NCBI GenBank assembly: GCA_017507805.1
Contig: JAFWAC010000001.1
Span: forward strand, 23,695 to 87,694
Direction: 5' to 3'
Length of the DNA stretch: 64,000 nucleotides
From: Clostridia bacterium
GTDB lineage: Bacteria > Bacillota > Clostridia > Oscillospirales > Acutalibacteraceae
Both the position numbers and the translations under genes were made by a program. Of the stretch, positions 3,218-58,458 are shown piece after piece. Within the stretch, counting starts at the first letter, position 1; each line of letters begins with the position of its first letter. The notes beneath the pieces are model-generated. The model saw nothing but the letters and a program-made list of their open reading frames with translations, ran no database searches and had not been told where the DNA came from.

Positions 3218-4597
3218 ATGATACATTGCTATAAGCTTGGCGGACTTAATATCGTGTTGGATGTCTATTCCGGCTCTGTGCATCTTGTGGACGAGGTGGC
3301 ATACGATATTATCAGTATGTATGAAACTGAAACACTTGAACAGATAACCGAAAAAATTCTCGCAAAATACGGAGCTTTACCCGATGTCACAGCAGAGGAA
3401 ATAAAGGCTTGCTTCGAGGAAATCGGAGAATTAAAGCAGGCAGGCAAGCTTTTTAAGGAGGACACCTTTAAACCGATGGCAGGTGACCTCAAGCAAAAAA
3501 GTGCAGGAATAGTAAAGGCTCTCTGCCTTCATGTGGCACACACCTGCAACCTCAACTGCTCCTATTGCTTTGCAAGTCAGGGCAAATACCACGGTGACAG
3601 GGCAATTATGAGCCTTGAGGTGGGTAAAAGAGCCTTGGATTTCCTTATTGAAAATTCGGGCAGCCGCAGAAATTTAGAGGTTGATTTCTTTGGCGGCGAG
3701 CCGCTTATGAATTTTGATATGATTAAAGAGCTTGTTGCCTATGCCCGAAAGAGGGAAAAAGAAGCCAACAAAAATTTTCGCTTCACCCTGACAACTAACG
3801 GAATTTTGGTTGATGATGAGGTAATCGACTTTGCAAACCGCGAAATGAGCAATGTTGTGCTCAGTCTTGACGGCAGAAAGGAAGTTCACGACCGCTTCAG
3901 GGTTGATTACAACGGAGTGGGAAGCTGGGAGAGAATTGTTCCCAAATTTCAGCGCTTTGTTGAGAAGCGCGGCAACAAAAACTACTATATGCGCGGCACC
4001 TTTACCCACGCAAACCCCGATTTTGTCAAGGATATTGAAGAAATGCTGTCCTTGGGCTTCACCGAGCTTAGTATGGAGCCGGTGGTCTGCGCTCCCGATG
4101 ATCCCTCGGCACTGACCGAGCAGGATTTGCCCATCGTTTTAGAGCAGTACGAAAAGCTGGCATTTTTAATGCTTGACTGCATAAAACAGGGCAAGCCCTT
4201 CACCTTTTATCACTATATGCTTGACCTTAAAAGCGGCCCTTGCATTTACAAGAGGATTTCGGGCTGTGGCTCTGGTACCGAATATATGGCGGTTACTCCT
4301 TGGGGCGACCTTTATCCCTGCCATCAGTTTGTGGGTGAGGAAAGGTTCAGGCTCGGCAATGTATGGACAGGGGTTGAAAACACCGCTGTTCAGGACGAGT
4401 TTGCCGCCTGTAATGTTTACACCCGTCCCGAATGTGAAAACTGCTGGGCAAAGCTTTATTGCTCGGGCGGCTGTGCGGCTAATGCCTATCACGCGACCGG
4501 CTCTGTAAACGGAATTTACAGCTACGGCTGTGAGCTTTTCAGAAAAAGAATGGAATGTGCAATTATGCTTGAAGCGGCAAAGACAGTGGGTAAGTGA
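3218..4597 (+). CDS. scfB: SCIFF radical SAM maturase (SPASM-domain thioether-forming enzyme)
   Basis: 459 aa. CNLNCSYC radical-SAM CxxxCxxC motif. Cys-rich C-terminal SPASM region (CGSG...CHQF...CxxC...CSGGC). Adjacent to the SCIFF peptide. Confidence 0.92.
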   Translation: MIHCYKLGGLNIVLDVYSGSVHLVDEVAYDIISMYETETLEQITEKILAKYGALPDVTAEEIKACFEEIGELKQAGKLFKEDTFKPMAGDLKQKSAGIVKALCLHVAHTCNLNCSYCFASQGKYHGDRAIMSLEVGKRALDFLIENSGSRRNLEVDFFGGEPLMNFDMIKELVAYARKREKEANKNFRFTLTTNGILVDDEVIDFANREMSNVVLSLDGRKEVHDRFRVDYNGVGSWERIVPKFQRFVEKRGNKNYYMRGTFTHANPDFVKDIEEMLSLGFTELSMEPVVCAPDDPSALTEQDLPIVLEQYEKLAFLMLDCIKQGKPFTFYHYMLDLKSGPCIYKRISGCGSGTEYMAVTPWGDLYPCHQFVGEERFRLGNVWTGVENTAVQDEFAACNVYTRPECENCWAKLYCSGGCAANAYHATGSVNGIYSYGCELFRKRMECAIMLEAAKTVGK

Positions 4598-4598
4598 T

Positions 4599-5939
4599 AT
4601 GGATACCCCGATTGTAGATTTTGTGAAAAGCTATGCAAACCAAAATAATATGAGGCTTCATATGCCGGGACACAAGGGCAAAGCCTTTTTGGGTCCCGAA
4701 CGGTGGGATATAACCGAAATCGAGGGTGCAGATGTGCTTTACAGCGCAAACGGTATTATAAAAAAAAGTCAGCAGAACGCCGCCTCACTTTTCGGCACAG
4801 AAAAAACCCTTTATTCAACCGAGGGCTCCTCACTTTGTATCAGGGCTATGGTCTCACTTATTAAAATGTATGCCGGTATACAAAAGCAAAAGCCGACTGT
4901 ATTAGCCGGCAGAAACGCGCACAAAAGCTTTGTTACAGCCTGCGCTGTGCTTGATGTTGAAGCCGATTGGCTTTTTCCGCCCGAAAGTGAAGCTCTGCTT
5001 TCCTGCAATATCACGGCGGAGTATCTCGAAAGTGTTTTAAGCAGTTGCTCGGTTAAACCGACCGCGGTTTATGTCACAAGTCCCGATTATCTCGGGAATA
5101 TGCTTGATATAAAGGCTTTGTCTCAGGTTTGCCGCAAGCATAAAGTTTTATTGGCAGTTGACAATGCCCACGGCGCATACCTCAAATTTTTGCCCGTTTC
5201 TCTCCATCCAATGGATTTGGGGGCTGATATTTGCTGTGATTCGGCGCACAAAACACTTCCCGTTTTAACGGGCGGCGCTTATTTGCATATAAGTAAGCTT
5301 GCACCCGAATTTTTAAAGCTTTGCTCGGAAACGGCAATGTCACTTTTTGCTTCAACAAGCCCGTCTTACCTGATTTTGCAATCGCTTGATATGGCAAATG
5401 AATATTTATCTCTTAATTATAAAGCAAGCCTTTCGGAATTTATTTCAGAGGTTCGAGGGCTTAAAAATGAGCTGGTAACACAAGGTTATCGGCTTTTAGG
5501 AAACGAGCCGTTAAAGCTTACCCTTGCCACTAAGGAATACGGCTACACGGGCCTTGAGCTTGCGGAAGCATTGGCAGAAAAGGGGATTATCTGCGAATTT
5601 TCCGATCCTGATTTTATATGCTTTATGCTAACCCCCGAAAACGGCGCCGAAAATCTTGAAAAGCTTAAAACTGCCCTGCTTGAGATACCAAAAAACGAGC
5701 CTTTGACCGCTTTGCCGCCCAAGCCAACCCTTAAAAAACGGGTGCTGAGCCTGAATGAGGCTGTTTTTTCGCCGGGCAGGCAAATTCCTGTGAGCCAATC
5801 CCTTGGAAAAATTCTGGCTTCCCCGACAGTGAGCTGTCCTCCGGCAGTACCCCTTGTGATGTGCGGTGAGGAAATCGACCAAGCCGCAATCGAAGGCTTT
5901 TCTTATTACGGAATTAAAGAATGTACCGTTGTTTTTTGA
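4599..5939 (+). CDS. PLP-dependent Orn/Lys/Arg decarboxylase-family protein
   Basis: Start moved to the ATG at 4599 (MDTPIVDF..), 1 nt after the scfB stop. MPGHKG N-terminal motif and DSAHKT PLP-lysine motif. Confidence 0.85.
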   Translation: MDTPIVDFVKSYANQNNMRLHMPGHKGKAFLGPERWDITEIEGADVLYSANGIIKKSQQNAASLFGTEKTLYSTEGSSLCIRAMVSLIKMYAGIQKQKPTVLAGRNAHKSFVTACAVLDVEADWLFPPESEALLSCNITAEYLESVLSSCSVKPTAVYVTSPDYLGNMLDIKALSQVCRKHKVLLAVDNAHGAYLKFLPVSLHPMDLGADICCDSAHKTLPVLTGGAYLHISKLAPEFLKLCSETAMSLFASTSPSYLILQSLDMANEYLSLNYKASLSEFISEVRGLKNELVTQGYRLLGNEPLKLTLATKEYGYTGLELAEALAEKGIICEFSDPDFICFMLTPENGAENLEKLKTALLEIPKNEPLTALPPKPTLKKRVLSLNEAVFSPGRQIPVSQSLGKILASPTVSCPPAVPLVMCGEEIDQAAIEGFSYYGIKECTVVF

Positions 5940-5960
5940 ATTTTGGTTTTCTGTTTCATT

Positions 5961-5995
5961 AAAAAATCTCCTGTCTTTAGGGCAGGAGATTTTTG
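5961..5995. terminator. bidirectional-looking hairpin terminator (A-tract, 8-bp stem, T-tract)
   Basis: AAAAA-ATCTCCTG-TCTTTAGG-CAGGAGAT-TTTTT between convergent genes. Homologous to the hairpin at 6800..6838. Confidence 0.6.
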
Positions 5996-6175
5996 TTACT
6001 TATATTCAATTTTAATTTCGCCATTTTGCGCCTCAAAATCTCTTATACATTGGCGGATTAGGTATAATATCTGTCCGTTTGCCGAACGCCCCTCATATTT
6101 TGCAATATAGTGAAGCTTTCCGTGTATTTCAGGCTCTATCTCAATTCCTAAATGCTTGTTATTCTTATTTCTCAT
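5996..6175 (-). CDS. small ribbon-helix-helix (Arc/CopG-like) DNA-binding protein
   Basis: 59 aa from the ATG at 6175 (GGTGA RBS). Predicted beta-strand HLGIEIEPEIH followed by two helices. Divergent from the SLOG gene with a palindromic operator between them. Confidence 0.6.
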   Translation of the reverse strand: MRNKNNKHLGIEIEPEIHGKLHYIAKYEGRSANGQILYLIRQCIRDFEAQNGEIKIEYK

Positions 6176-6238
6176 TAATATCACCAACAAATCTTAATTT
6201 AAGTATATTTTAAGATTAATTTATGATATAATGGGGTT

Positions 6239-6261
6239 AGTATACTTAAATTAAGTATACT
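6239..6261. promoter_or_regulatory. operator-like perfect palindrome AGTATACTTAA-A-TTAAGTATACT
   Basis: 11-bp arms. Immediately downstream of a TATAAT at 6227..6232. A third half-site, CTTAATTTAAGTATA, at 6193..6207. Confidence 0.5.
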
Positions 6262-6285
6262 AAATATATAGGAAAGAGTGTTTTT

Positions 6286-6723
6286 ATGGTTTGTACTTTT
6301 TTTGGGCACCGAACGATAGATAAAGGAATAGAGCCGACCTTGCGGTCAATCCTTGTGGATTTAATAGAAAATAAAAATGTAGAAAAGTTTTATGTTGGAA
6401 ATCATGGTTCCTTTGATTCTTTAGTAATAAGAAATCTTGAAGCATTAGAAACCATTTATCCGCATATTAAATATTCAATCGTACTTGCGTATTTAACGGG
6501 AAAAAAGAGTGAATATCATTGCTTTGATTTTTCTCGTACGCTTTATCCTGACGGGCTTGAAAAAACCCCTCCAAAATTTGCGATAGATAAGCGCAACCGT
6601 TGGATGATTGAAAAATCAGATTTTGTTGTAACCTATGTAAAAAGGTTTGGCGGTGCGTATAATTACAAAGAAATTGCTGAAAAAAAGGGAAAAATTATAA
6701 TTAATATAGCAGACTTAATTTAA
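6286..6723 (+). CDS. SLOG-superfamily protein, DUF1273/YpsA-like (paralog of 57790..58224)
   Basis: 145 aa. FFGHR N-terminus, FYVGNHGSFD, YPHIKY..VLAY, AIDKRNRWMIEKSD. About 53% identical to the 57.8-kb paralog by manual alignment. Confidence 0.75.
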   Translation: MVCTFFGHRTIDKGIEPTLRSILVDLIENKNVEKFYVGNHGSFDSLVIRNLEALETIYPHIKYSIVLAYLTGKKSEYHCFDFSRTLYPDGLEKTPPKFAIDKRNRWMIEKSDFVVTYVKRFGGAYNYKEIAEKKGKIIINIADLI

Positions 6724-6733
6724 TAAAGCTTTT

Positions 6734-6799
6734 GTAGGGGCAGGCGTCCTCGACTGCCCGTCAAACGCATCTAAACCTTTTCAGACAGCCCGTCCCTAC
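6734..6799. repeat. GTAGGG...CCCTAC palindromic element, copy P1-a (right arm degenerate)
   Basis: GTAGGGGCAGGCGTCCTCGACTGCCCGT ... CAGACAGCCCGTCCCTAC. Related to the copies at 42283..42355 and 51399..51471. Confidence 0.7.
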
Positions 6800-6838
6800 A
6801 AAAAATCTCTCCCTGATAAACACAGGGAGAGATTTTTG
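6800..6838. terminator. hairpin terminator, homologous to 5961..5995
   Basis: AAAAA-ATCTCTCCCTG-ATAAACA-CAGGGAGAGAT-TTTTT, an 11-bp perfect stem. Confidence 0.6.
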
Positions 6839-6856
6839 TTATTTACATTTGCCTAT

Positions 6857-7069
6857 AAATTATAGTTTAGCGGTTCGAATGTTTTTCACAACCATTAGCT
6901 CCCTCTGATGAGGGAGCTGTCACCGCAAGGTGACTGAGGGAGAGAAAAAACAAGGATTTATCTGTGTTTTAGCCTTTTCTCTCCCTCCGAGTTTGCTCCG
7001 CAAACCCACCTCCCTCGTCAGAGGGAGGCAAGGTTTCAGCTTTCTATTTAGCGCGGCAAACTATAATTT
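6857..7069. mobile_element. MITE-like unit bounded by the AAATTATAGTTTAGCG terminal motif, carrying palindrome S-a
   Basis: AAATTATAGTTTAGCG at 6857..6872 and an imperfect inverted copy CAAACTATAATTT at 7057..7069. No coding capacity. Confidence 0.55.
6898..7028. repeat. S-element copy a: ~130-nt multi-hairpin palindromic repeat
   Basis: GCTCCCTC-TGAT-GAGGGAGC, GTCACC-GCAA-GGTGAC, long stem GAGGGAGAGAAAA/TTTTCTCTCCCTC, GTTTGC-TCC-GCAAAC, CCTCCCTC-GTCA-GAGGGAGG. Other copies at 31042..31170 and 58288..58420. Confidence 0.85.
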
Positions 7070-7147
7070 ATATGTGTTTACACCATCGGGGTATTAGGTT
7101 GCGATTTTGCAGAATAAAAAGGCGGATAGACCGCGGGGGCACCCCGC
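7070..7147 (-). repeat. repeat module M (copy 1, inverted relative to 35607..35692)
   Basis: Reverse complement GCGGGGTGCCCCCGCGGTCTATCCGCCTTTTTATTCTGCAAAATCGCAAC..ATACCCCGATGGTGTAAACACATAT matches 35607..35692 and part of 57327..57364. Abuts the glmS stop codon. Confidence 0.75.
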
Positions 7148-8970
7148 TATTCCACAGTTACCGATTTTGCAAGGTTGCGGGGTTTATCAATATCACAGCC
7201 GTTATAAAGGGCAGCATAATAGGCATAAAGCTGAAAGGGGATAACCTCCAACGAAGCCGAAAGCAGTGGGTGGGTTTTTGGGATATATATAACCTCCTGT
7301 GCCTCTGCTTCAATGACGGTGTTACCCTCGGTCGCACAGGCTAAAACATCGGCGCCTCTTGCGCGCACCTCCTTAACATTGCTTAAAAGCTTATCGAAAA
7401 GTCTTTCGCAGGCACAAAGGGCTATCACGGTGCGCCCCTCCTCGATAAGAGAGATTGTTCCGTGCTTAAGCTCGCCTGCGGCATAGGCTTCGGAATGAAT
7501 GTAAGAAATTTCCTTTAATTTTAGGGAGGCTTCAAGGGCTACGGCATAGTCTGTATTTCTGCCGATAAAGAAAAGGGAATGTGGATTTCCGCATTTCTTT
7601 GCCGCCTGCTTTATAATCGGCTCTGCTTCAATAACCCTTTTGATTTTTTTAGGTAAAAGTCTCAATTCATCAAAAAGCGCCTCAATTTTTTCACTTTCCA
7701 TTGTGCCAAGCATTCTTGCCGCCCAGACAGCAAAAAGATAAAGCACAGAAAGCTGTGTGGAATAGCCCTTGGTTGTGGCAACCGCAATTTCGGGGCCTGC
7801 CCAGGTGTAGATTACATCGTCTGAAGCCTTTGCGATAGAGCTTCCCACCACATTAACGATTGAAAGCACATGCGAGCCGCGTTTTTTAGCCTCCTTTAAG
7901 GCGGCAAGGGTGTCAGCCGTTTCGCCCGACTGACTTATAACTATGGTAAGTGTTTTTTCATCAACAATCGGGTTGCGGTAGCGAAATTCGCTTGCCAAAT
8001 CAACCTCGGTGGGTATTCTTAAGGTTTCCTCCAAAACATATTTTCCCACCATACCCGCATGATAAGCCGAGCCGCAGGCTATAATTGATATGCGGTTGAT
8101 ATTTTTCAGGCTTTCACCGTTTAATTTTATATCCTCAAAAACAATTTCTCTGCCTCTGATGCGGCTTTCAACCGTTTGAGAAACGGCATCGGGCTGTTCG
8201 TGAATTTCCTTCATCATAAAATGCTCATACCCGCCCTTTTCAGCCGCCGCAACATCCCAGCCCACAACCGATGGCGTGCGCTCCAAGGCAGTGCCGTCCG
8301 CGGAATAAACCGTGACGGAATTCGGTGTTATAAGGGCGGTTTCACCGTCCTCAATATATAAAACCTTTTTTGTATGTGATACTATCGCCGTCACATCCGA
8401 GGCTATTATGTTTGCGTCCTCGCCCAAGCCGATAATAAGCGGGCTGAAATGCTTTGCCGCAACGAGGGTGTCGGGAAAATCGGTGCAAATAATGCCTAAT
8501 GCATAAGAGCCCTCAAGCCTTGCAGTCACTTCTCTTACCGCCTCGATTAAATTTCCCTCGTAATATTTCTGCAAAAGCTGTGGTATTACCTCGGTGTCGG
8601 TCTGACTTTTAAAGCTTATGCCCTCGGCTTCAAGCTCCGCCTTAAGAGAAGCATAATTTTCGATTATCCCGTTATGAACAACAGCAAATTTCATATTTTC
8701 ACTTGTGTGTGGGTGGGCATTTTCAACCGATGGCGCACCGTGGGTTGCCCATCTTGTGTGACCGATACCCAAAGCACCGCCGTCATTATCGAAGCCCTTA
8801 ATTGCTTTAAGCGCCTGCACGCGCTCGACCGTTTTATAAATATTGAATTTATCTTGATTTAAGAGGGCAATACCTGCAGAGTCATAGCCGCGGTACTCAA
8901 GCCTGTGAAGTCCCTCAAACAAAAAATCCTTTGCCGCGCTTTTGCCGGCAAAGCCTACTATTCCGCACAT
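7147..8970 (-). CDS. glmS: glutamine--fructose-6-phosphate aminotransferase
   Basis: 607 aa from MCGIVGF (Ntn-amidotransferase Cys2). Two SIS domains. C-terminal ..AKSVTVE. The upstream in-frame extension to 9024 was rejected. Confidence 0.97.
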   Translation of the reverse strand: MCGIVGFAGKSAAKDFLFEGLHRLEYRGYDSAGIALLNQDKFNIYKTVERVQALKAIKGFDNDGGALGIGHTRWATHGAPSVENAHPHTSENMKFAVVHNGIIENYASLKAELEAEGISFKSQTDTEVIPQLLQKYYEGNLIEAVREVTARLEGSYALGIICTDFPDTLVAAKHFSPLIIGLGEDANIIASDVTAIVSHTKKVLYIEDGETALITPNSVTVYSADGTALERTPSVVGWDVAAAEKGGYEHFMMKEIHEQPDAVSQTVESRIRGREIVFEDIKLNGESLKNINRISIIACGSAYHAGMVGKYVLEETLRIPTEVDLASEFRYRNPIVDEKTLTIVISQSGETADTLAALKEAKKRGSHVLSIVNVVGSSIAKASDDVIYTWAGPEIAVATTKGYSTQLSVLYLFAVWAARMLGTMESEKIEALFDELRLLPKKIKRVIEAEPIIKQAAKKCGNPHSLFFIGRNTDYAVALEASLKLKEISYIHSEAYAAGELKHGTISLIEEGRTVIALCACERLFDKLLSNVKEVRARGADVLACATEGNTVIEAEAQEVIYIPKTHPLLSASLEVIPFQLYAYYAALYNGCDIDKPRNLAKSVTVE

Positions 8971-9086
8971 AAAAAATACACCTTTCCGCTTGTATGGACG
9001 GAAGGGCGCAAAAAATAAACGCACAAAACTGCCGCAAGGGTATAATAACCCCTTGTGTTCCGTACATACAAAAAAATATTTTTTTA

Positions 9087-9230
9087 CAGCATAGCGAACA
9101 CCTTTGTTCCGAAATTACTTTCGGGTTTTGTGCATCCGTTTACGACATGTCTGCCGTGGGGCATCCGCCGAATCTTTCGATGAACCCCAACCTCGTCAAC
9201 CGCTATGCCATATGTACGGTCCCGGCGCTT
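9087..9230 (-). promoter_or_regulatory. glmS ribozyme (GlcN6P-dependent self-cleaving riboswitch)
   Basis: Minus strand reads A/GCGCCGGGACC...GGTTGACGAGG...TCGAAAGATTCGGCGGATGCCCC...CGGAACAAAGG. This matches conserved glmS ribozyme core blocks in the glmS 5' UTR. Confidence 0.88.
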
Positions 9231-9324
9231 GAAATTAATTAAACGGTTTTTTATCCTTTCATTTTATTTTATGGCATATAATCCGCAAACCGAGCATTTT
9301 TTATTTTTTACTCGATTATACTAT

Positions 9325-24178: not shown

Positions 24179-24201
24179 GGGAGGCGAAACGCCTCCCCTA
24201 C
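24179..24201 (-). terminator. short GTAGGGGA-family hairpin (H-1); probable terminator of the RHH gene
   Basis: Minus strand GTAGGGGAGGCG-TTT-CGCCTCCC followed by GTTTGATTTTAT. Homologous, in inverted orientation, to 47676..47699. Confidence 0.45.
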
Positions 24202-24257
24202 AATTTATCAAGAAAATATAATTAACATTTCGTAGGGAACGAGTTTTAAAATTTGGT

Positions 24258-24443
24258 TTATTCCGATTGACCTTTTTCCTCTTTTAAATTTGCCAAAGCA
24301 ACCCTCACTGCTTCAATAACAAAAGCAGTGAAAGTGCAGTTAGTTCCTTTTATTTCATTTTCTACCTGTTCTATAATATCATTTGGAAAGCGAATACATT
24401 TATTAGTAGTAGGTGGTTGGGACGGAATTTTAAAGCTTTTCAT
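24258..24443 (-). CDS. small ribbon-helix-helix (Arc/YlcI-like) DNA-binding protein
   Basis: 61 aa from the ATG at 24443 (GAGGTGA RBS). KCIRFPNDIIEQVE beta-strand/helix signature. The 23-aa upstream extension was rejected. Confidence 0.6.
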   Translation of the reverse strand: MKSFKIPSQPPTTNKCIRFPNDIIEQVENEIKGTNCTFTAFVIEAVRVALANLKEEKGQSE

Positions 24444-24453
24444 AAAATCACCT

Positions 24454-24489
24454 CTGCAAATATTATTGTATATCAAAAAATATTTGCAG
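24454..24489. promoter_or_regulatory. operator-like inverted repeat CTGCAAATATT-N14-AATATTTGCAG
   Basis: Perfect 11-bp arms in the divergent control region. Additional ATTGCA direct repeats at 24495..24512. Confidence 0.45.
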
Positions 24490-24569: not shown

Positions 24570-24971
24570 ATGATTAAAAAAATAGTGGTTGCAGGGTGCA
24601 GGGATTATCAGGATTATGAACAGGCAAAGGAATACATAGATTTCTGCATCAGTAATATAAAAAAGAAATATACCCTTGTTTTTGTGTCGGGTGGGTGTGC
24701 CGGCGCGGATATGCTCGGTGAGCGCTATGCCAGGGAAAACGGATATGAAATTGAGCGCTATCCTGCCGAATGGGAAAAATACGGCAGGTCTGCAGGACCG
24801 AAAAGAAACGAACAAATGGCAAAGGCTGCGGATTTTGTTATCTGCTTTTGGGACGGACAAAGCCGCGGCACAAAAACAATGATTGAATTTGCAAGACAAA
24901 TGGGAAAACGCGTAAAAATCAAGAAAATAAAATTAACATTCCCTACAAATAATTTATGTTTAAAACATTGA
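24570..24971 (+). CDS. SLOG-superfamily protein, DUF2493-like
   Basis: 133 aa. VVAGCRDY, VSGGCAGADMLGERYA, GPKRNEQMA, WDGQSRGTK. The last ~15 aa read through a repeat terminus and overlap the polC 3' end by 12 nt. Confidence 0.75.
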   Translation: MIKKIVVAGCRDYQDYEQAKEYIDFCISNIKKKYTLVFVSGGCAGADMLGERYARENGYEIERYPAEWEKYGRSAGPKRNEQMAKAADFVICFWDGQSRGTKTMIEFARQMGKRVKIKKIKLTFPTNNLCLKH

Positions 24972-31041: not shown

Positions 31042-31170
31042 GCTCCCTCTGATGAGGGAGCTGTCACCGGAAGGTGACTGAGGGAGAGAAAAACAAAAAT
31101 TCATCGCGGTTTCACCCTTTCTCTCCCTCCGTCAAAACTTCGTTTTGCCACCTCCCTCGTCAGAGGGAGG
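31042..31170. repeat. S-element copy b
   Basis: Same module order as 6898..7028. Interior hairpins GTCACC-GGAA-GGTGAC and CAAAAC-TTC-GTTTTG. Lies between dxr and rseP. Confidence 0.85.
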
Positions 31171-35506: not shown

Positions 35507-35593
35507 TCAAATTATATATAAGTTTTTCATACTGCCGCTTTTAGCTTTTCCGTTCCAACCCATCACCGCATTTTACTCGATTTAGGGAGTGTT

Positions 35594-35883
35594 AAATTAT
35601 AGTTTAGCGGGGTGCCCCCGCGGTCATTCCGCCTTTTTATTCTGCAAAATTACAACACGATACCCCGATGGCGTAAACACATATAAATTATAGTAGGGGA
35701 CGATGGGTCTCGTTGCGGCTCGGTCACTTTTTGGCTCTGACAGTCCACCGGACTGTCATTCACTACCAAAAAGCCGCTTCGCTACCCACATCGTCCCGCT
35801 TGGTTTCTGCAAATTCTGGCGGGACGATGTGGGCATCGTCCCCTACAAAATGTCAATTTAATTAGTGCGCTAAACTATAATTT
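35594..35883. mobile_element. composite MITE-like mosaic bounded by perfect 16-nt inverted termini
   Basis: AAATTATAGTTTAGCG at 35594..35609 and CGCTAAACTATAATTT at 35868..35883. The interior holds module M (35607..35692, ending in AAATTATAGT) and palindrome P2-a. Confidence 0.7.
35693..35846. repeat. GTAGGGGAC...GTCCCCTAC palindrome P2-a, left arm split by a 79-nt nested palindromic insertion (35706..35784)
   Basis: Apart from the insertion, the arms match the perfect copy at 57402..57476. The loop is in the inverted orientation with one base difference. Confidence 0.8.
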
Positions 35884-40630: not shown

Positions 40631-40853
40631 TAAAAAAATAACGCCCTGAAAAAATTTCAGGACGAATAAAAATCCGTGGTACCACCCGATTTCGGGAAAA
40701 TCCCGCACTCAAAACCCGTAACGAGGGTGACGGCAATCCCTTTCGGGCGCAGCTGAGGAAAGAGCTTCACAGGGCTTTAAAGGTGGATTTTCACCGGCCA
40801 TCCACTCTCTTGACACTTAAAACCGAGCTACTTATTTTCCCTTATCGCTTTTA
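40631..40853 (-). promoter_or_regulatory. T-box leader (tRNA-sensing riboswitch), probable Ala (GCU) specifier
   Basis: Minus strand has AGTA S-turn, AGAGAG, GGTGAAAA distal loop, T-box sequence AATCGGGTGGTACCACGG and terminator CGTCCTGAAATTTTTTCAGGGCG + T-run. GAA-GCU-C lies in the specifier position (codon at 40765..40763). Confidence 0.8.
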
Positions 40854-40860
40854 CAAATTA

Positions 40861-41289: not shown

Positions 41290-41310
41290 TATAAATAAAT
41301 ATCAAAATTT

Positions 41311-41516
41311 TTGTCCTGCGCTGTTCGCGGACCGTGACTTATATAACCCTACAACCTTTTTAAAAGGGACCACAGCTCGTACGGCGGGCTTGCAGACCTC
41401 CCGCGGCGGTGCCGAGTTCGGAAGAAGGGAGCGCGAAGCCGTACGGCCGGTACCCACCTGGCTTACGCTAGGTTATCTTAAGCACATTACGGCAGCGCGG
41501 GACACTCGTGTTTTTT
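41311..41516 (+). ncRNA. ffs: signal recognition particle RNA (SRP/scRNA)
   Basis: Closing helix GTCCTGCGCTG / CAGCGCGGGAC. Domain IV-like GAGTTC-GGAA-GAAGGGAGCGC resembles CAGGUCC-GGAA-GGAAGCAGC. Long helix CGTACGGC../..GCCGTACG. T-run at the 3' end. Confidence 0.7.
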
Positions 41517-55612: not shown

Positions 55613-57250
55613 TTATTTTATCTCGTTTTGTTGGGCGACCACGCTGTCACCGCAGTAGATACGGCGAAGCTTGGGCTTTTCAATTTTTCCTGTGGGGTTG
55701 CGCGGTACCTCGGCAAAAATAATTTTGCGCGGCCGCTTATATCTTGGCAATTCAAGGCAAAATTCCTCTATCTCAGCTTCGGTGAGGGTAAGCCCCTCCT
55801 TTGCCTGAATAATAGCCGTTGCAATTTCTCCTAAGCGCGCATCGGGCAGACCGATTACCGCAACATCGCTTATTTTTTCGTGCTTTCTTAAGAAATCCTC
55901 AATCTGAACGGGGTAAAGATTTTCGCCGCCTGAAATGATAACATCCTTTTTGCGGTCAACAAGGAAAATAAAGCCGTCCTCATCCTCGGATGCCATATCG
56001 CCTGTAAAGAGCCAACCGTCACGCAAAACCTCGTTTGTTGCCTTTTCGTCCTTGTAATAGGCGGTCATAACACCGGGACCTCTAACGGCAAGCTCGCCCA
56101 CCTCGCCGCGGGCAACGGTATTGCCGTTTTCGTCAACGATTTTTGTCTCCCAGCCGAAGCCTGCCTTACCGATTGCGCCAACCTTGTGCTCGTTTTCCAC
56201 TCCAAGGTGAACACAGCCGGGACCGATAGACTCCGAAAGACCGTAGTTTGTATCGTAGGAATGGGTGGGGAAATACTGCTTCCACCTTTTTATAAGGCTG
56301 GGCGGCACAGGCTGTGCGCCGATGTGCATAAGTCTCCACTGAGAAAGGTCGTAATCCTGAAGCTTTATATCGCCGCGCTCAATTGCGTCAAGAATATCCT
56401 GTGCCCACGGCACCAACAGCCAGACGATAGAGCATTTTTCCTCCGAAACGGCGCGCAAAATCCATTCGGGGTTAATACCCTTAAGGATTACCGCCTTACC
56501 GCCCACAAGGAAGCTGCCGAACCAATGCATTTTAGCGCCTGTGTGGTAAAGGGGCGGTATGCAGAGGAAAACATCCTCCTTGGTTTGTGAATGGTGGTTC
56601 TGCTCGGTCATTGCCGAGTGAACAAGGCTTCTGTGTTTATGTATAATAGCCTTGGGGAAGCCTGTTGTTCCCGAGGAAAAGTAAATCGCGGCATCGTCCT
56701 CATCAGTAAGCTTGATTTGGGGGCTTTTTGATGAGCAGTAGGACACTAAGCTGTCATAGCTTTCGGCAAAGGTGGGGCAATCCTCACCTAAATAAAGCCA
56801 CATTTTTATTCTCGGCACCCTGCCCACAATCTGTTCGACACGGCCTGTAAATTCCGGTCCGAAAATTATTACATCGGCATCGGCAAGCTCAAGACAGTAT
56901 TTAATCTCATCCGAAGCGTAACGGTAGTTAAGAGGTACTGCCAACGCGCCTGTTTTAAGCACACCGAAATATATGGGCAGCCACTCAATGCAGTTCATTA
57001 AAAGAATGGCAACCTTGTCCCCCTTTTTAATTCCGCGGGAGAGCAAAAGGTTTGCAAAGCGGTTAGCCTTCTTGTTAAACTCGCCCCAGGTAATTTCCTT
57101 GCGGTAGGCATCGTTGGGGTTGGCCTCTATAAGGGAATATTCCTGCCAGGTAAGACGGCGGTTATTTTCGTTTTTTGGATTTATTTCCACAAGGCTTATG
57201 TCCTCGGGGTAAAAATCCGCATTTTTTTGCAAAATTTCGGTAATAGGCAT
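55613..57250 (-). CDS. AMP-dependent acyl-CoA synthetase/ligase
   Basis: 545 aa. SSGTTGFPKA, GYGLSE-like NYGLSE and GWLFTGD motifs. C-terminal PRNPTGKI. Confidence 0.92.
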   Translation of the reverse strand: MPITEILQKNADFYPEDISLVEINPKNENNRRLTWQEYSLIEANPNDAYRKEITWGEFNKKANRFANLLLSRGIKKGDKVAILLMNCIEWLPIYFGVLKTGALAVPLNYRYASDEIKYCLELADADVIIFGPEFTGRVEQIVGRVPRIKMWLYLGEDCPTFAESYDSLVSYCSSKSPQIKLTDEDDAAIYFSSGTTGFPKAIIHKHRSLVHSAMTEQNHHSQTKEDVFLCIPPLYHTGAKMHWFGSFLVGGKAVILKGINPEWILRAVSEEKCSIVWLLVPWAQDILDAIERGDIKLQDYDLSQWRLMHIGAQPVPPSLIKRWKQYFPTHSYDTNYGLSESIGPGCVHLGVENEHKVGAIGKAGFGWETKIVDENGNTVARGEVGELAVRGPGVMTAYYKDEKATNEVLRDGWLFTGDMASEDEDGFIFLVDRKKDVIISGGENLYPVQIEDFLRKHEKISDVAVIGLPDARLGEIATAIIQAKEGLTLTEAEIEEFCLELPRYKRPRKIIFAEVPRNPTGKIEKPKLRRIYCGDSVVAQQNEIK

Positions 57251-57326
57251 TTTAAAATTCCTTCCTGATAATTATACAAATATATTTTAACACTTTAAAG
57301 CGAATTTTGCAAGGGTTTATTATTCA

Positions 57327-57501
57327 AAATTGCAACATGATACCACGATGGTGTGAACATATATAAATTATAGTTTAGCGCACTAATTAAATTGACATTT
57401 TGTAGGGGACGATGCCCACATCGTCCCGCCAGAATTTGCAGAAACCAAACGGGACGATGTGGGCATCGTCCCCTACGAACAACCCCAATAAACTATAATT
57501 T
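57327..57501. mobile_element. composite repeat: partial module M + AAATTATAGTTTAGCG (57365..57380) + perfect P2-b palindrome + AAACTATAATTT (57490..57501)
   Basis: 57365..57401 is the exact reverse complement of 35847..35883. 57327..57364 matches module M. Confidence 0.75.
57402..57476. repeat. P2-b: perfect 27-bp-arm palindrome GTAGGGGACGATGCCCACATCGTCCCG-N21-CGGGACGATGTGGGCATCGTCCCCTAC
   Basis: The arms are exact reverse complements. The loop CCAGAATTTGCAGAAACCAAA is the reverse complement, with one base difference, of the loop at 35799..35819. Confidence 0.9.
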
Positions 57502-57521
57502 ATTGCAAGAAAGATTTTTGG

Positions 57522-57550
57522 TTGTAAAAATCACAAAGGTTTGGTATAAT
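57522..57550 (+). promoter_or_regulatory. sigmaA-type promoter of the SLOG-3 leader
   Basis: TTGTAA (57522..57527), 17 nt, TGG-TATAAT (57545..57550). Confidence 0.5.
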
Positions 57551-57743
57551 GCTTCTGCCAAGCAATTTTAACAAGTAAGCCAAAGGTAATTTCTTGCAGG
57601 AATTATACCTTTTTTCTTTGCACACAATATGAATGATGAATTTGGTAAAAATGCAAATTCCTTCATTTGTATTGTGTAGGATTTATTATATCCTTGAGCT
57701 TACTTTTGAATTGTTTGGCGACAATTGGGGTTTGCGTTTTTCA

Positions 57744-57772
57744 GTGCGTGACTTCGGTTGCGCGCTTTTTTA
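57744..57772 (+). terminator. leader terminator/attenuator 18 nt upstream of the SLOG-3 start
   Basis: 9-bp stem (GTGCGTGAC / GTTGCGCGC, with G-U pairs) closed by a UUCG loop, followed by TTTTTT. Confidence 0.5.
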
Positions 57773-57789
57773 TTTAGGGGGAAACGGAA

Positions 57790-58224
57790 ATGACGGTTAC
57801 CTTTTTCGGGCACAGAATAACACCAAACGAAATAAAACCAAGGTTAATGCTGGTTTTGAGGGATTTAATAGAAAACAGCCAAGCAGACACCTTTTATGTT
57901 GGCAACCAAGGCGATTTCGATCGGTTGGTAAGGCAAAGCCTCAGGGAGCTTGAAAAGCAATATCCGCATATCAGGTACAATGTAGTCCTTGCTTATATGC
58001 CAATCCGAAGCGGGTTAGACGAGTGTCGCGATTTTTCGGACACAATCTACCCTGAAGGTCTTGAAGCTGTATCCCCGAAAAATGCAATCGACAGGCGCAA
58101 CCGATGGATGCTTGAAAAATGTGACTGTGCGGTGGTTTATATCACAGGTGTCGGCAATGCGAGTACATACGGGGAGCTTGCCGAGAAAATGGGCAAGACA
58201 GTGATTAACATTGCAGAAAAATAA
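57790..58224 (+). CDS. SLOG-superfamily protein, DUF1273/YpsA-like (paralog of 6286..6723)
   Basis: 144 aa. TFFGHR, FYVGNQGDFD, YPHIRY..VLAY, AIDRRNRWMLEK. GGGGG RBS. Confidence 0.78.
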   Translation: MTVTFFGHRITPNEIKPRLMLVLRDLIENSQADTFYVGNQGDFDRLVRQSLRELEKQYPHIRYNVVLAYMPIRSGLDECRDFSDTIYPEGLEAVSPKNAIDRRNRWMLEKCDCAVVYITGVGNASTYGELAEKMGKTVINIAEK

Positions 58225-58230
58225 TAAAAT

Positions 58231-58458
58231 AAAGGGCTGTCTAACAAAGGTTAAAATGCACAAATTAACGGAGTAGCTTCACCACCGGCTCCCTCTGACG
58301 AGGGAGCTGTCGAGTGAAACGAGACTGAGGGAGAGAAAAAACTACACTAATTGTAGAAATTTCACTTTTTCTCTCCCTCCGTCACGGCCACACCGTGCCA
58401 CCTCCCTCGTCAGAGGGAGGCAGGGTTTGTGCACAAACCTTTAATGAGACAGCCCTTT
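58231..58458. repeat. 228-nt compound palindrome filling the SLOG-3/symporter intergenic region; core is S-element copy c (58288..58420)
   Basis: Outer arms AAAGGGCTGTCTAACAAAGGTTAAAATGCACAAA (58231..58264) and TTTGTGCACAAACCTTTAATGAGACAGCCCTTT (58426..58458) enclose S-c. Confidence 0.8.

Follow-up and report, generated by a model that had tools for sequence, protein, structure and literature searches.

SLOG domains have a Rossmann-like fold and bind or cleave nucleotides and derivatives of nicotinamide adenine dinucleotide (NAD) or ADP-ribose. They are central to nucleotide-signalling immune systems (e.g., Thoeris ThsA and Shosta) and to TRPM channels. To our knowledge, only one member of the YpsA family has been studied, and we know of no ligand for the family. 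Ribbon-helix-helix (RHH) and Xre proteins represent the two classic DNA-binding folds of antitoxins, and in the immI region of phage P22, the RHH repressors Mnt and Arc control the divergent promoters Pant and Pmnt. The contexts of YpsA-family genes described by Brzozowski et al. comprise gpsB, phosphoribosyltransferase (PRTase) genes, NAD salvage, and nucleotide conflict systems, and a small divergent repressor is not among them (PMC6459960). Here, we analyzed a 64,000-nucleotide stretch of DNA from a Clostridia bacterium of the Acutalibacteraceae (contig JAFWAC010000001.1; referred to as the window), in which a gene for a 59-aa RHH protein and a gene for a 145-aa YpsA-like SLOG protein are transcribed away from each other. 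The pair had been pointed out in an earlier reading of the nucleotide sequence and its open reading frames (ORFs) without database searches (the sequence-only reading). The YpsA family, RHH repressors, and SLOG conflict systems are already known. The new element is the pairing of a small divergent repressor with a YpsA-family SLOG gene, with regulators that are interchangeable; we found no description of such a pairing in the searchable literature (the 2015 SLOG classification paper lies outside this search).

RESULTS

The RHH gene occupies positions 5996 to 6175 on the minus strand (59 aa from an ATG codon), and the SLOG gene, which we call mini-YpsA, occupies positions 6286 to 6723 on the plus strand, with a ribosome-binding site (AGGAAAGAG) at 6270 to 6278. 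The two genes diverge over a spacer of 110 bp (6176 to 6285), as the sequence-only reading had described, and are flanked by a decarboxylase gene (plus strand) on the left and by glmS on the right. We collected 90 loci with relatives of the SLOG gene, of which 79 had enough upstream DNA. A small divergent ORF starting with ATG was located upstream of the SLOG gene in 75 of the 79 loci, and a 76th (L110) starts with GTG; the spacers range from about 50 to 330 bp in the divergent loci. On the basis of this count (76/79), a chance adjacency of regulator and SLOG genes was rejected. Among the divergent ORFs, we distinguished two large groups and two minor types of Xre proteins as well as two families of RHH proteins (Pfam supports the Xre and RHH families), and each regulator class has its own spacer palindrome. 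Most mini-YpsA genes are paired with Xre proteins, not with the RHH protein of the window. The regulator classes are interleaved on a neighbor-joining tree of the SLOG proteins (a crude tree without support values), on which the RHH-linked SLOG of the window is the sister of an Xre-linked SLOG. The genes that flank the pair are different in every genome. The near-constant presence of a divergent regulator, the differing flanks, and the intermixing of regulator classes support the earlier proposal that the locus is a small, portable regulator/effector unit.

An independent unit consisting of an Xre gene and a mini-YpsA gene was found directly after a homologous decarboxylase gene in an Acutalibacteraceae metagenome-assembled genome (MAG) (L055; positions 7343 to 8062). 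This unit occupies the same decarboxylase boundary as the pair in the window, in the opposite orientation. Gene contexts were also retrieved from the RHH side in seven look-ups, four of which revealed a divergent gene of the SLOG superfamily; in one of these four (L181; positions 1678 to 2719), an Xre-RHH operon with the RHH gene in second place faces a mini-YpsA gene.

The 145-aa protein belongs to the YpsA family as a compact SLOG protein and is distinct from the gpsB-linked "YpsA proper." The gpsB linkage and the length of approximately 180 aa that characterize the latter were not found: the neighbors are the RHH gene and glmS, the homologous loci show a small regulator, and the length is 141 to 150 aa. 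A word-indexed search yielded 1,267 homologues, the nearest being 65% identical, and an exhaustive profile search yielded 398 clusters at 50% identity with E values of ≤1e-30 (5,185 with E values of ≤1e-3), nearly all of 136 to 160 aa. The Pfam YpsA profile was matched by 38 of 43 aligned family members (E ≤ 0.01; best, 3.2e-8). With the family alignment as input, AlphaFold gave a confident model (pLDDT, 90; pTM, 0.84) of alternating strands and helices, which fits a three-layer Rossmann-like alpha/beta fold with a five-stranded parallel sheet. The best match to this model in the PDB (Foldseek) was Bacillus subtilis YpsA (2NX2; E = 1e-5; TM = 0.75), followed by ShosA, DprA, TRPM2/4/8, ThsA, and LOG; the top 13 matches and most of the stronger later ones are SLOG proteins. 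The invariant residues in the alignment of 43 sequences are F5, G7, H8, G38, G41, D44, Y69, A99, I100, R103, N104, and G122; in the model, strand 1 is followed by G7-H8, strand 2 by G38/G41/D44, and strand 3 by Y69 and R103-N104. In the SLOG/TIR/DrHyd clade, the same positions form the ligand pocket (PMC9503650, PMC6459960). Since the pocket residues are invariant in the family, mini-YpsA probably still binds a ligand or acts as an enzyme.

Searches of the SLOG protein against NCBIfam, PADLOC, and PDB sequences, with the sequence and with a profile, yielded chance matches at most, and PADLOC models of anti-phage defense systems matched either of the two proteins only at chance level (E = 0.02 to 0.04). 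No member of the mini-YpsA clade was found in 50,697 INPHARED phage records and only two distant matches were found in IMG/VR; the clade is also nearly absent from plasmids. The database protein call for this gene (P0001; 122 aa from a GTG codon at 6355) lacks strand 1 and the invariant GH loop (FFGH motif). Since the N terminus is conserved in homologues, the 145-aa form, and not P0001, is the correct one.

Several lines of evidence point to an Arc/Mnt-type RHH protein as the product of the 59-aa ORF. The protein has 2,127 homologues, and those aligned (including sequences from Christensenellaceae, Ruminococcus, and Phocea) are 78 to 88% identical and all start with MRNKNNK, which supports the ATG codon over a longer TTG start that is available. 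Relatives are named "Arc-like DNA binding domain-containing protein" in UniRef. The protein itself carries a GRSANGQ turn, and the invariant E-G-R-S-A-N-G of the family aligns with NGRSMNS of Mnt. Sequence-level matches to characterized proteins were weak: PHROG "Arc-like repressor" families (E = 1.5e-3), the antitoxin EndoAI as the best PDB profile match (E = 0.01), and Mnt (1MNT; E = 0.27, or 0.14 by profile), which aligned over the strand, helix A, and the GRSxN turn. One RHH homologue matched HicB (0.01) and a FitA-like RHH family (0.034), both under the Pfam threshold. In the structural model, helices span residues 15 to 28 and 32 to 51 behind an extended N-terminal arm (a monomer model, the strand forming only in the dimer), which is consistent with a strand-helix-helix topology carrying a G-x-S/T-x-N turn at the start of helix B. 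The top 40 Foldseek matches are mostly RHH proteins (0.9 to 1.5 Å over 33 to 43 residues; E > 1), and the fold neighbors include Arc, CopA, FitA, TacA, AtaR, AmrZ, and MatP. These fold matches and the GRSxN turn, together with 2NX2 as the top fold match of the SLOG protein, bear out the identities that the sequence-only reading had assigned to the two genes.

The palindrome noted in the spacer at 6239 to 6261, the preceding TATAAT, and the third half-site at 6193 to 6207 are all present as given. The palindrome, already perfect over 6239 to 6261, extends to 6237 to 6263 (13+1+13 nt; core, GTATACTTA-N3-TAAGTATAC), and we predict that it is the main operator (O1). The pattern GTATACTTANNNTAAGTATAC has a single match in 64 kb (0 expected), and no further full O1-type operator was found elsewhere in the window. 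The putative SLOG promoter has a TATAAT (6227 to 6232) preceded by TG (6224 to 6225), which makes it an extended -10 element (TGATATAAT; 6224 to 6232, plus strand); a consensus promoter scan missed it because it has no -35 element. O1 spans 5 to 31 bp downstream of the -10 box, so that repressor binding there would stop transcription at initiation or early in elongation. An operator-like block, O2 (AATCTTAA-TTTAAGTATATT-TTAAGATT; 6190 to 6217), holds the third TTAAGTATA half-site, in which positions 6193 to 6207 match 6245 to 6259 at 14 of 15 positions. The 9-mer TTAAGTATA occurs four times in the window (0.5 expected), three of them within this spacer. The centers of O1 (6250) and O2 (6198) are 52 bp apart, i.e., about five helical turns. 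O2 also contains ATTTTA (6207 to 6212; TAAAAT in the minus-strand direction). This hexamer is still present in L175 (a Ruminococcus flavefaciens MAG) and is a candidate -10 element of the RHH gene.

The O1 core is kept in nine independent loci (with a few substitutions in L086, L125, L149, L176, and L180), and the O2 block is conserved in the window, L086, L133, L173, and L176; thus, a palindromic, putatively operator-type element with a related second block stands beside the RHH family's own gene. When six RHH-type spacers were aligned (mean column identity, 75%), the blocks TGnTATAAT, TAAGT.TATTTTA, and TTTAAGTATAC were invariant. Three blocks stand out (AATCTTAAnTTAAGTATATTTTAAGATT, TGnTATAAT, and GTATACTTA-N3-TAAGTATAC) over six loci whose SLOG proteins are 47 to 61% identical. 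This conservation across loci with diverged SLOG proteins strongly supports the idea that the palindrome serves as an operator. The RHH control region fronts a SLOG gene of the YAcAr clade in L175 and persists without any SLOG gene, with a degraded -10 box, in L180.

The G+C content is 27 to 35% over positions 6000 to 6900 and 44 to 50% in the flanks, so the pair is indeed AT richer than the flanking decarboxylase and glmS genes. All eight RHH-type loci lie 6 to 20 G+C points under their own flanks. Over 53 non-redundant loci, the module lies on average 3.3 G+C points below its flanks (negative in 40 of 53), while the G+C content of the SLOG gene equals that of the flanks on average. Since the family-wide drop is small and the SLOG gene matches its flanks, the strong AT bias is a trait of the RHH subtype, and strong AT-richness as a family-wide property was rejected.

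Two terminator-like hairpins frame the pair. The left one (5962 to 5994), a bidirectional terminator between the decarboxylase gene (plus) and the RHH gene (minus), contains a perfect inverted repeat of 12 bp, for which the terminator scan counts 15 pairs, with a T run behind it; the right one (6801 to 6837) is the SLOG terminator. They lie within direct-repeat copies at 5961 to 6006, which overlaps the last RHH codons, and at 6800 to 6849. The hairpins have their outer arms and a 21-nt 3' tail in common and share AAAAAATCTC and GAGATTTTTGTTAYTTAYATT. Within the window, AAAATCTC..GAGATTTT is confined to these two hairpins, and 177 related loci (approximately 1.3 Mb) contain no copy of it. The relationship between the two terminators exceeds chance. 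The sequence-only reading had taken the related hairpins in direct orientation as a sign of insertion at, or duplication of, a terminator. The relationship of the hairpins stands, and insertion could not be shown, because no empty site, no nearby recombinase, and no sufficiently close relatives were available and because the terminators at other loci are unrelated. Specifically, no recombinase gene is adjacent to the cassette, no joints skipping the cassette were found in four metagenomes at 95% likeness (the cassette was contiguous and evenly covered), the contigs of partly matching metagenomes at 80% likeness yielded nothing but noise, which came from conserved and repeated segments, and homologous flanking hairpins were found at no other RHH-type locus. 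An integron cassette was rejected as well, since an integrase is missing and the unit stands alone.

The presence of the cassette between the decarboxylase gene and glmS was also compared among 80 GTDB relatives fetched via the decarboxylase, of which the nearest share 40 to 60% decarboxylase identity. Downstream of the decarboxylase, every relative differs from the window, and glmS is not the neighboring gene in any of them; this comparison is therefore uninformative as to presence or absence. The left neighborhood (3218 to 5939) consists of a radical S-adenosylmethionine (SAM) gene (3218 to 4597) and a pyridoxal-phosphate-dependent Orn/Lys/Arg-decarboxylase-family gene, a pair conserved in approximately 65 of the 80 relatives. 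The alignment with relatives begins at residue 24, so the probable start codon of the decarboxylase is ATG 4599 and not GTG 4530.

The second regulator-plus-SLOG layout reported at 24.2 to 25.0 kb was recovered, and its SLOG protein belongs to a different clade, YAcAr, by Pfam (24570 to 24971, plus strand; E = 1.4e-13). Its regulator (24258 to 24443, minus strand) belongs to the YlcI/YnfO family. The spacer contains an 11-nt inverted repeat (CTGCAAATATT / AATATTTGCAG, 14 nt apart; 24454 to 24489) and ATTGCAA direct repeats, which are probably the operator of this regulator. Both proteins belong to phage-associated families (phrog_949 and phrog_289), and YAcAr relatives occur in 1,017 phage records.

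The mini-YpsA paralogue noted at 57.8 kb (57790 to 58224, plus strand) is likewise present and 53% identical to the mini-YpsA of the pair (Pfam YpsA, 17.3 bits, below threshold), with the correction that neither a divergent regulator nor an RHH operator is found near it. It is preceded by a predicted promoter (57522 to 57550; TTGTAA-17-TATAAT with TG) and by a terminator (57743 to 57766) just before the ribosome-binding site. The leader of approximately 230 nt folds far better than shuffled sequences (-87 kcal/mol; z = -7.75). A leader with 74% identity to it lies ahead of an unrelated lipoprotein gene in a Clostridia MAG (L070; 10730 to 10976, minus strand); 10 of 51 predicted base pairs are kept by changes on both sides between the two, and the apical loop of one hairpin is conserved (GUAAAAAUGCAAAUUCC). 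The leader (57555 to 57790) may represent an undescribed cis-regulatory RNA. At a permissive threshold, Rfam produced nothing credible in 5900 to 7160 or 57250 to 57830, and no hammerhead ribozyme was found despite CUGAUGA boxes. At the gathering threshold, Rfam identified the glmS ribozyme upstream of glmS (9085 to 9240, minus strand), a T-box leader (40655 to 40854, minus strand), and a 6S RNA (41310 to 41507, plus strand).

Two classes of repeats are present in the window. A hairpin resembling repetitive extragenic palindromic (REP) elements (TTTTGTAGGGGCAGGC...GCCCGTCCCTACAAAA; 6730 to 6803) lies between the SLOG stop codon and the terminator, and REP-like TTGTAGGGG...CCCCTACAA hairpins are located there and at 24180 to 24210, 34138, 35691 to 35848, 51459, and 57400 to 57478 (motif positions: 24189, 34138, 35691/35834, 51459, and 57400/57464). 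A composite palindromic repeat of approximately 220 nt (6854 to 7072; fold z, -11) lies between the SLOG terminator and glmS, with terminal inverted repeats (TATAAATTATAGTTTAGCG) and inner CTCCCTCTGAYGAGGGAG hairpins; repeats of this kind also lie at 31043 to 31169 and 58289 to 58419. The same inner element follows the paralogue at 58.3 kb, and the termini recur at 35591/35886, 47678, and 57362/57504. The depth of the repeat in metagenomes is 10 to 25 times that of its flanks, and it matches neither an Rfam family nor a hammerhead ribozyme. A repeat of one of these classes is found in four of the six intergenic regions next to the three SLOG loci, suggesting that these loci lie at recombination-prone spots.

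DISCUSSION

We consider it probable that the locus is a self-contained two-gene switch, in which a nucleotide-binding or nucleotide-processing protein is gated by a repressor and expressed conditionally. The 59-aa RHH protein would bind O1 just downstream of the extended -10 element of the SLOG gene and also O2, which overlaps the candidate promoter of its own gene. Binding would keep the expression of both genes low and self-limiting. What the data show are the identities of the genes, the fold, and the conservation of both the pairing and the operator; we infer the repression, the autoregulation, and the nucleotide ligand in this scheme, and harm on SLOG overexpression would be expected by likeness to B. 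subtilis YpsA, whose over-production blocks cell division in B. subtilis and is toxic in B. subtilis and Staphylococcus aureus (PMC6459960). The conservation of the unit in gut and rumen Clostridia, the frequent exchange of its repressor, and its unrelated housekeeping neighbors point to a dose-sensitive or conditionally needed accessory protein that has to be expressed under control, and the locus does not look like a fixed pathway enzyme. Dose sensitivity is further suggested by the toxicity of over-produced YpsA, by the retention of a regulator even though its type changes and by the regulator-less paralogue, which lies behind a long leader with a terminator.

Several observations weigh against this explanation. 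The 145-aa protein scores 17.9 bits against Pfam YpsA (PF06908/DUF1273; E = 0.0033), which does not reach the gathering cutoff of 27.7, and the 59-aa protein has no match in Pfam or NCBIfam; thus, of the Pfam affiliations expected from the sequence-only reading, only the SLOG one was recovered, below threshold, and the SLOG and RHH assignments rest on structure and family-level evidence. The RHH fold search gave E values of >1, which are non-significant for so short a chain. The operator function, the autoregulation, and the promoter assignments (i.e., the SLOG start site and the RHH promoter) are predictions, and no RNA-seq runs containing the locus were found. In addition, the RHH protein is encoded in further contexts: 9 bp downstream of a gene for a 141-aa GNAT protein in Phocea massiliensis (L171; 2566 to 3189), as two tandem paralogues before glnA-III in a Ruminococcus sp. 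(L178; 514 to 1041), and as a solitary gene without SLOG in L180. Since the RHH protein is far more conserved (78 to 88%) than the SLOG protein (nearest homologue, 65%) and also exists without it, it may have roles beyond gating the SLOG gene; the context look-ups indicate that it is often, but not always, a SLOG gatekeeper.

The same features invite comparison with a toxin-antitoxin (TA)-like or abortive-infection pair, in which mini-YpsA would be a growth-arresting effector (e.g., by consuming or altering a nucleotide or an NAD derivative) and the RHH or Xre protein an antitoxin that represses and also binds its partner through an acidic C-terminal tail. The regulator folds, the free swapping of partners, the short acidic or hydrophobic tail at the end of every regulator class, and the GNAT operon of L171 make this attractive, and EndoAI as the best PDB profile match of the RHH protein, the AT-rich, variably located module with several copies per genome, and the toxicity of over-produced YpsA in B. 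subtilis (PMC6459960) agree with it. We nevertheless regard such a pair as unlikely, because the genes point away from each other in 76 of 79 loci and are in no case arranged as an operon, the paralogue in the same genome is unguarded by a regulator or a nearby RHH operator, and ShosA, the closest characterized SLOG protein in a TA system, acts as the antitoxin instead of the toxin (PMC11961720, PMC12961424). The RHH tail is also only about 14 residues long, and PADLOC yielded no matches.

A quite improbable alternative is that mini-YpsA serves nucleotide or cofactor metabolism as an ordinary housekeeping enzyme under local control (e.g., a LOG-like N-glycosidase or a hydrolase of ADP-ribose derivatives), with a dedicated repressor and no role in conflict or mobility. 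Its chromosomal location among core genes, its absence from phage records and near-absence from plasmids, its fixed state at even depth in four metagenomes, the flank-like G+C content of the SLOG genes over 53 loci, and the conserved pocket would all be expected of such an enzyme. Its position, however, differs in every genome, its regulators have been replaced repeatedly and carry none of the ligand-sensing domains that a metabolic repressor needs, two paralogues and a YAcAr unit lie within 64 kb, and all RHH-type loci show a strong local drop in G+C content. It is very unlikely that the RHH protein is instead the primary component, i.e., a small, widespread repressor that acts autonomously on a regulon of its own, with the SLOG protein as a sensor or anti-repressor that modulates it upon binding a nucleotide signal. 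Such a role would fit the greater conservation of the RHH protein, its persistence without SLOG, and the noncatalytic sensor function of SLOG domains in ThsA and TRPM2 (PMC9503650), but the window contains no further full operator, most mini-YpsA genes are paired with Xre proteins and not with this RHH protein, and an RHH-SLOG interaction is only postulated.

Returning to the repressor-gated switch, a broader and tentative extension, which we hold to be possible but not probable, is that mini-YpsAs with interchangeable minimal repressors constitute a class of effectors in gut Clostridia that is widespread but unrecognized, targets nucleotides, and is expressed conditionally. They would be triggered by derepression and not by allosteric activation; the module would perhaps serve in defense or growth arrest or degrade nucleotide immune signals; and the paralogue might be controlled by the new leader RNA, which, if so, might give a clue to the ligand concerned. 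The analysis delimits a compact clade that comprises at least 398 clusters at 50% identity, with a simple, conserved, and experimentally tractable control circuit and a clear predicted operator sequence. Derepressing or expressing mini-YpsA thus provides a direct handle on its phenotype and ligand, and the conserved RHH protein and its predicted operator may offer a ready-made, portable repressor/promoter pair from gut Clostridia.

Among known proteins, B. subtilis YpsA is the top structural match and, like mini-YpsA, has a single domain. The two share a motif layout (strand 1 is followed by a glycine loop and strand 2 by G..G..D, and the helix behind strand 3 carries K/R-N), but they are only 13% identical, the lengths differ (145 versus 178 aa), the Pfam match lies below threshold, and the neighbor of mini-YpsA is a divergent repressor, not gpsB. 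ShosA of the ShosTA system (PDB 8ZVA), the second-best structural match, also provides a SLOG domain in a two-gene conflict module. In contrast to mini-YpsA, ShosA is DprA-like, has approximately 300 aa, and is encoded in an operon with a PRTase toxin; no PRTase is found here, and the PADLOC ShosA model does not match mini-YpsA. The YAcAr clade (PF10686/DUF2493) is represented in the second module of the window, and in L175, the same RHH gene and operator front a YAcAr gene. It is, however, a different SLOG clade that is abundant in phages, whereas the mini-YpsA clade has no INPHARED match.

With respect to the regulators, the controller (C) proteins of restriction-modification systems and the Xre/RHH antitoxins are likewise small, sensor-less DNA-binding proteins that gate a potentially harmful neighbor and undergo frequent non-orthologous replacement, but they are normally co-transcribed with their targets, unlike the divergent regulators of the mini-YpsA genes. 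The P22 immI region also has a minimal RHH repressor transcribed away from the gated gene and, in its textbook layout, palindromic operators over back-to-back promoters, and Mnt and the PHROG Arc-like repressors are among the closest sequence relatives of the RHH protein. It differs in that the gated gene is an antirepressor gene and not a SLOG gene, the region is carried by a phage and not by a chromosome, and two repressors are present where the window has one. Judged by this analogy, the layout of the locus would resemble the immI switch more than a TA operon.

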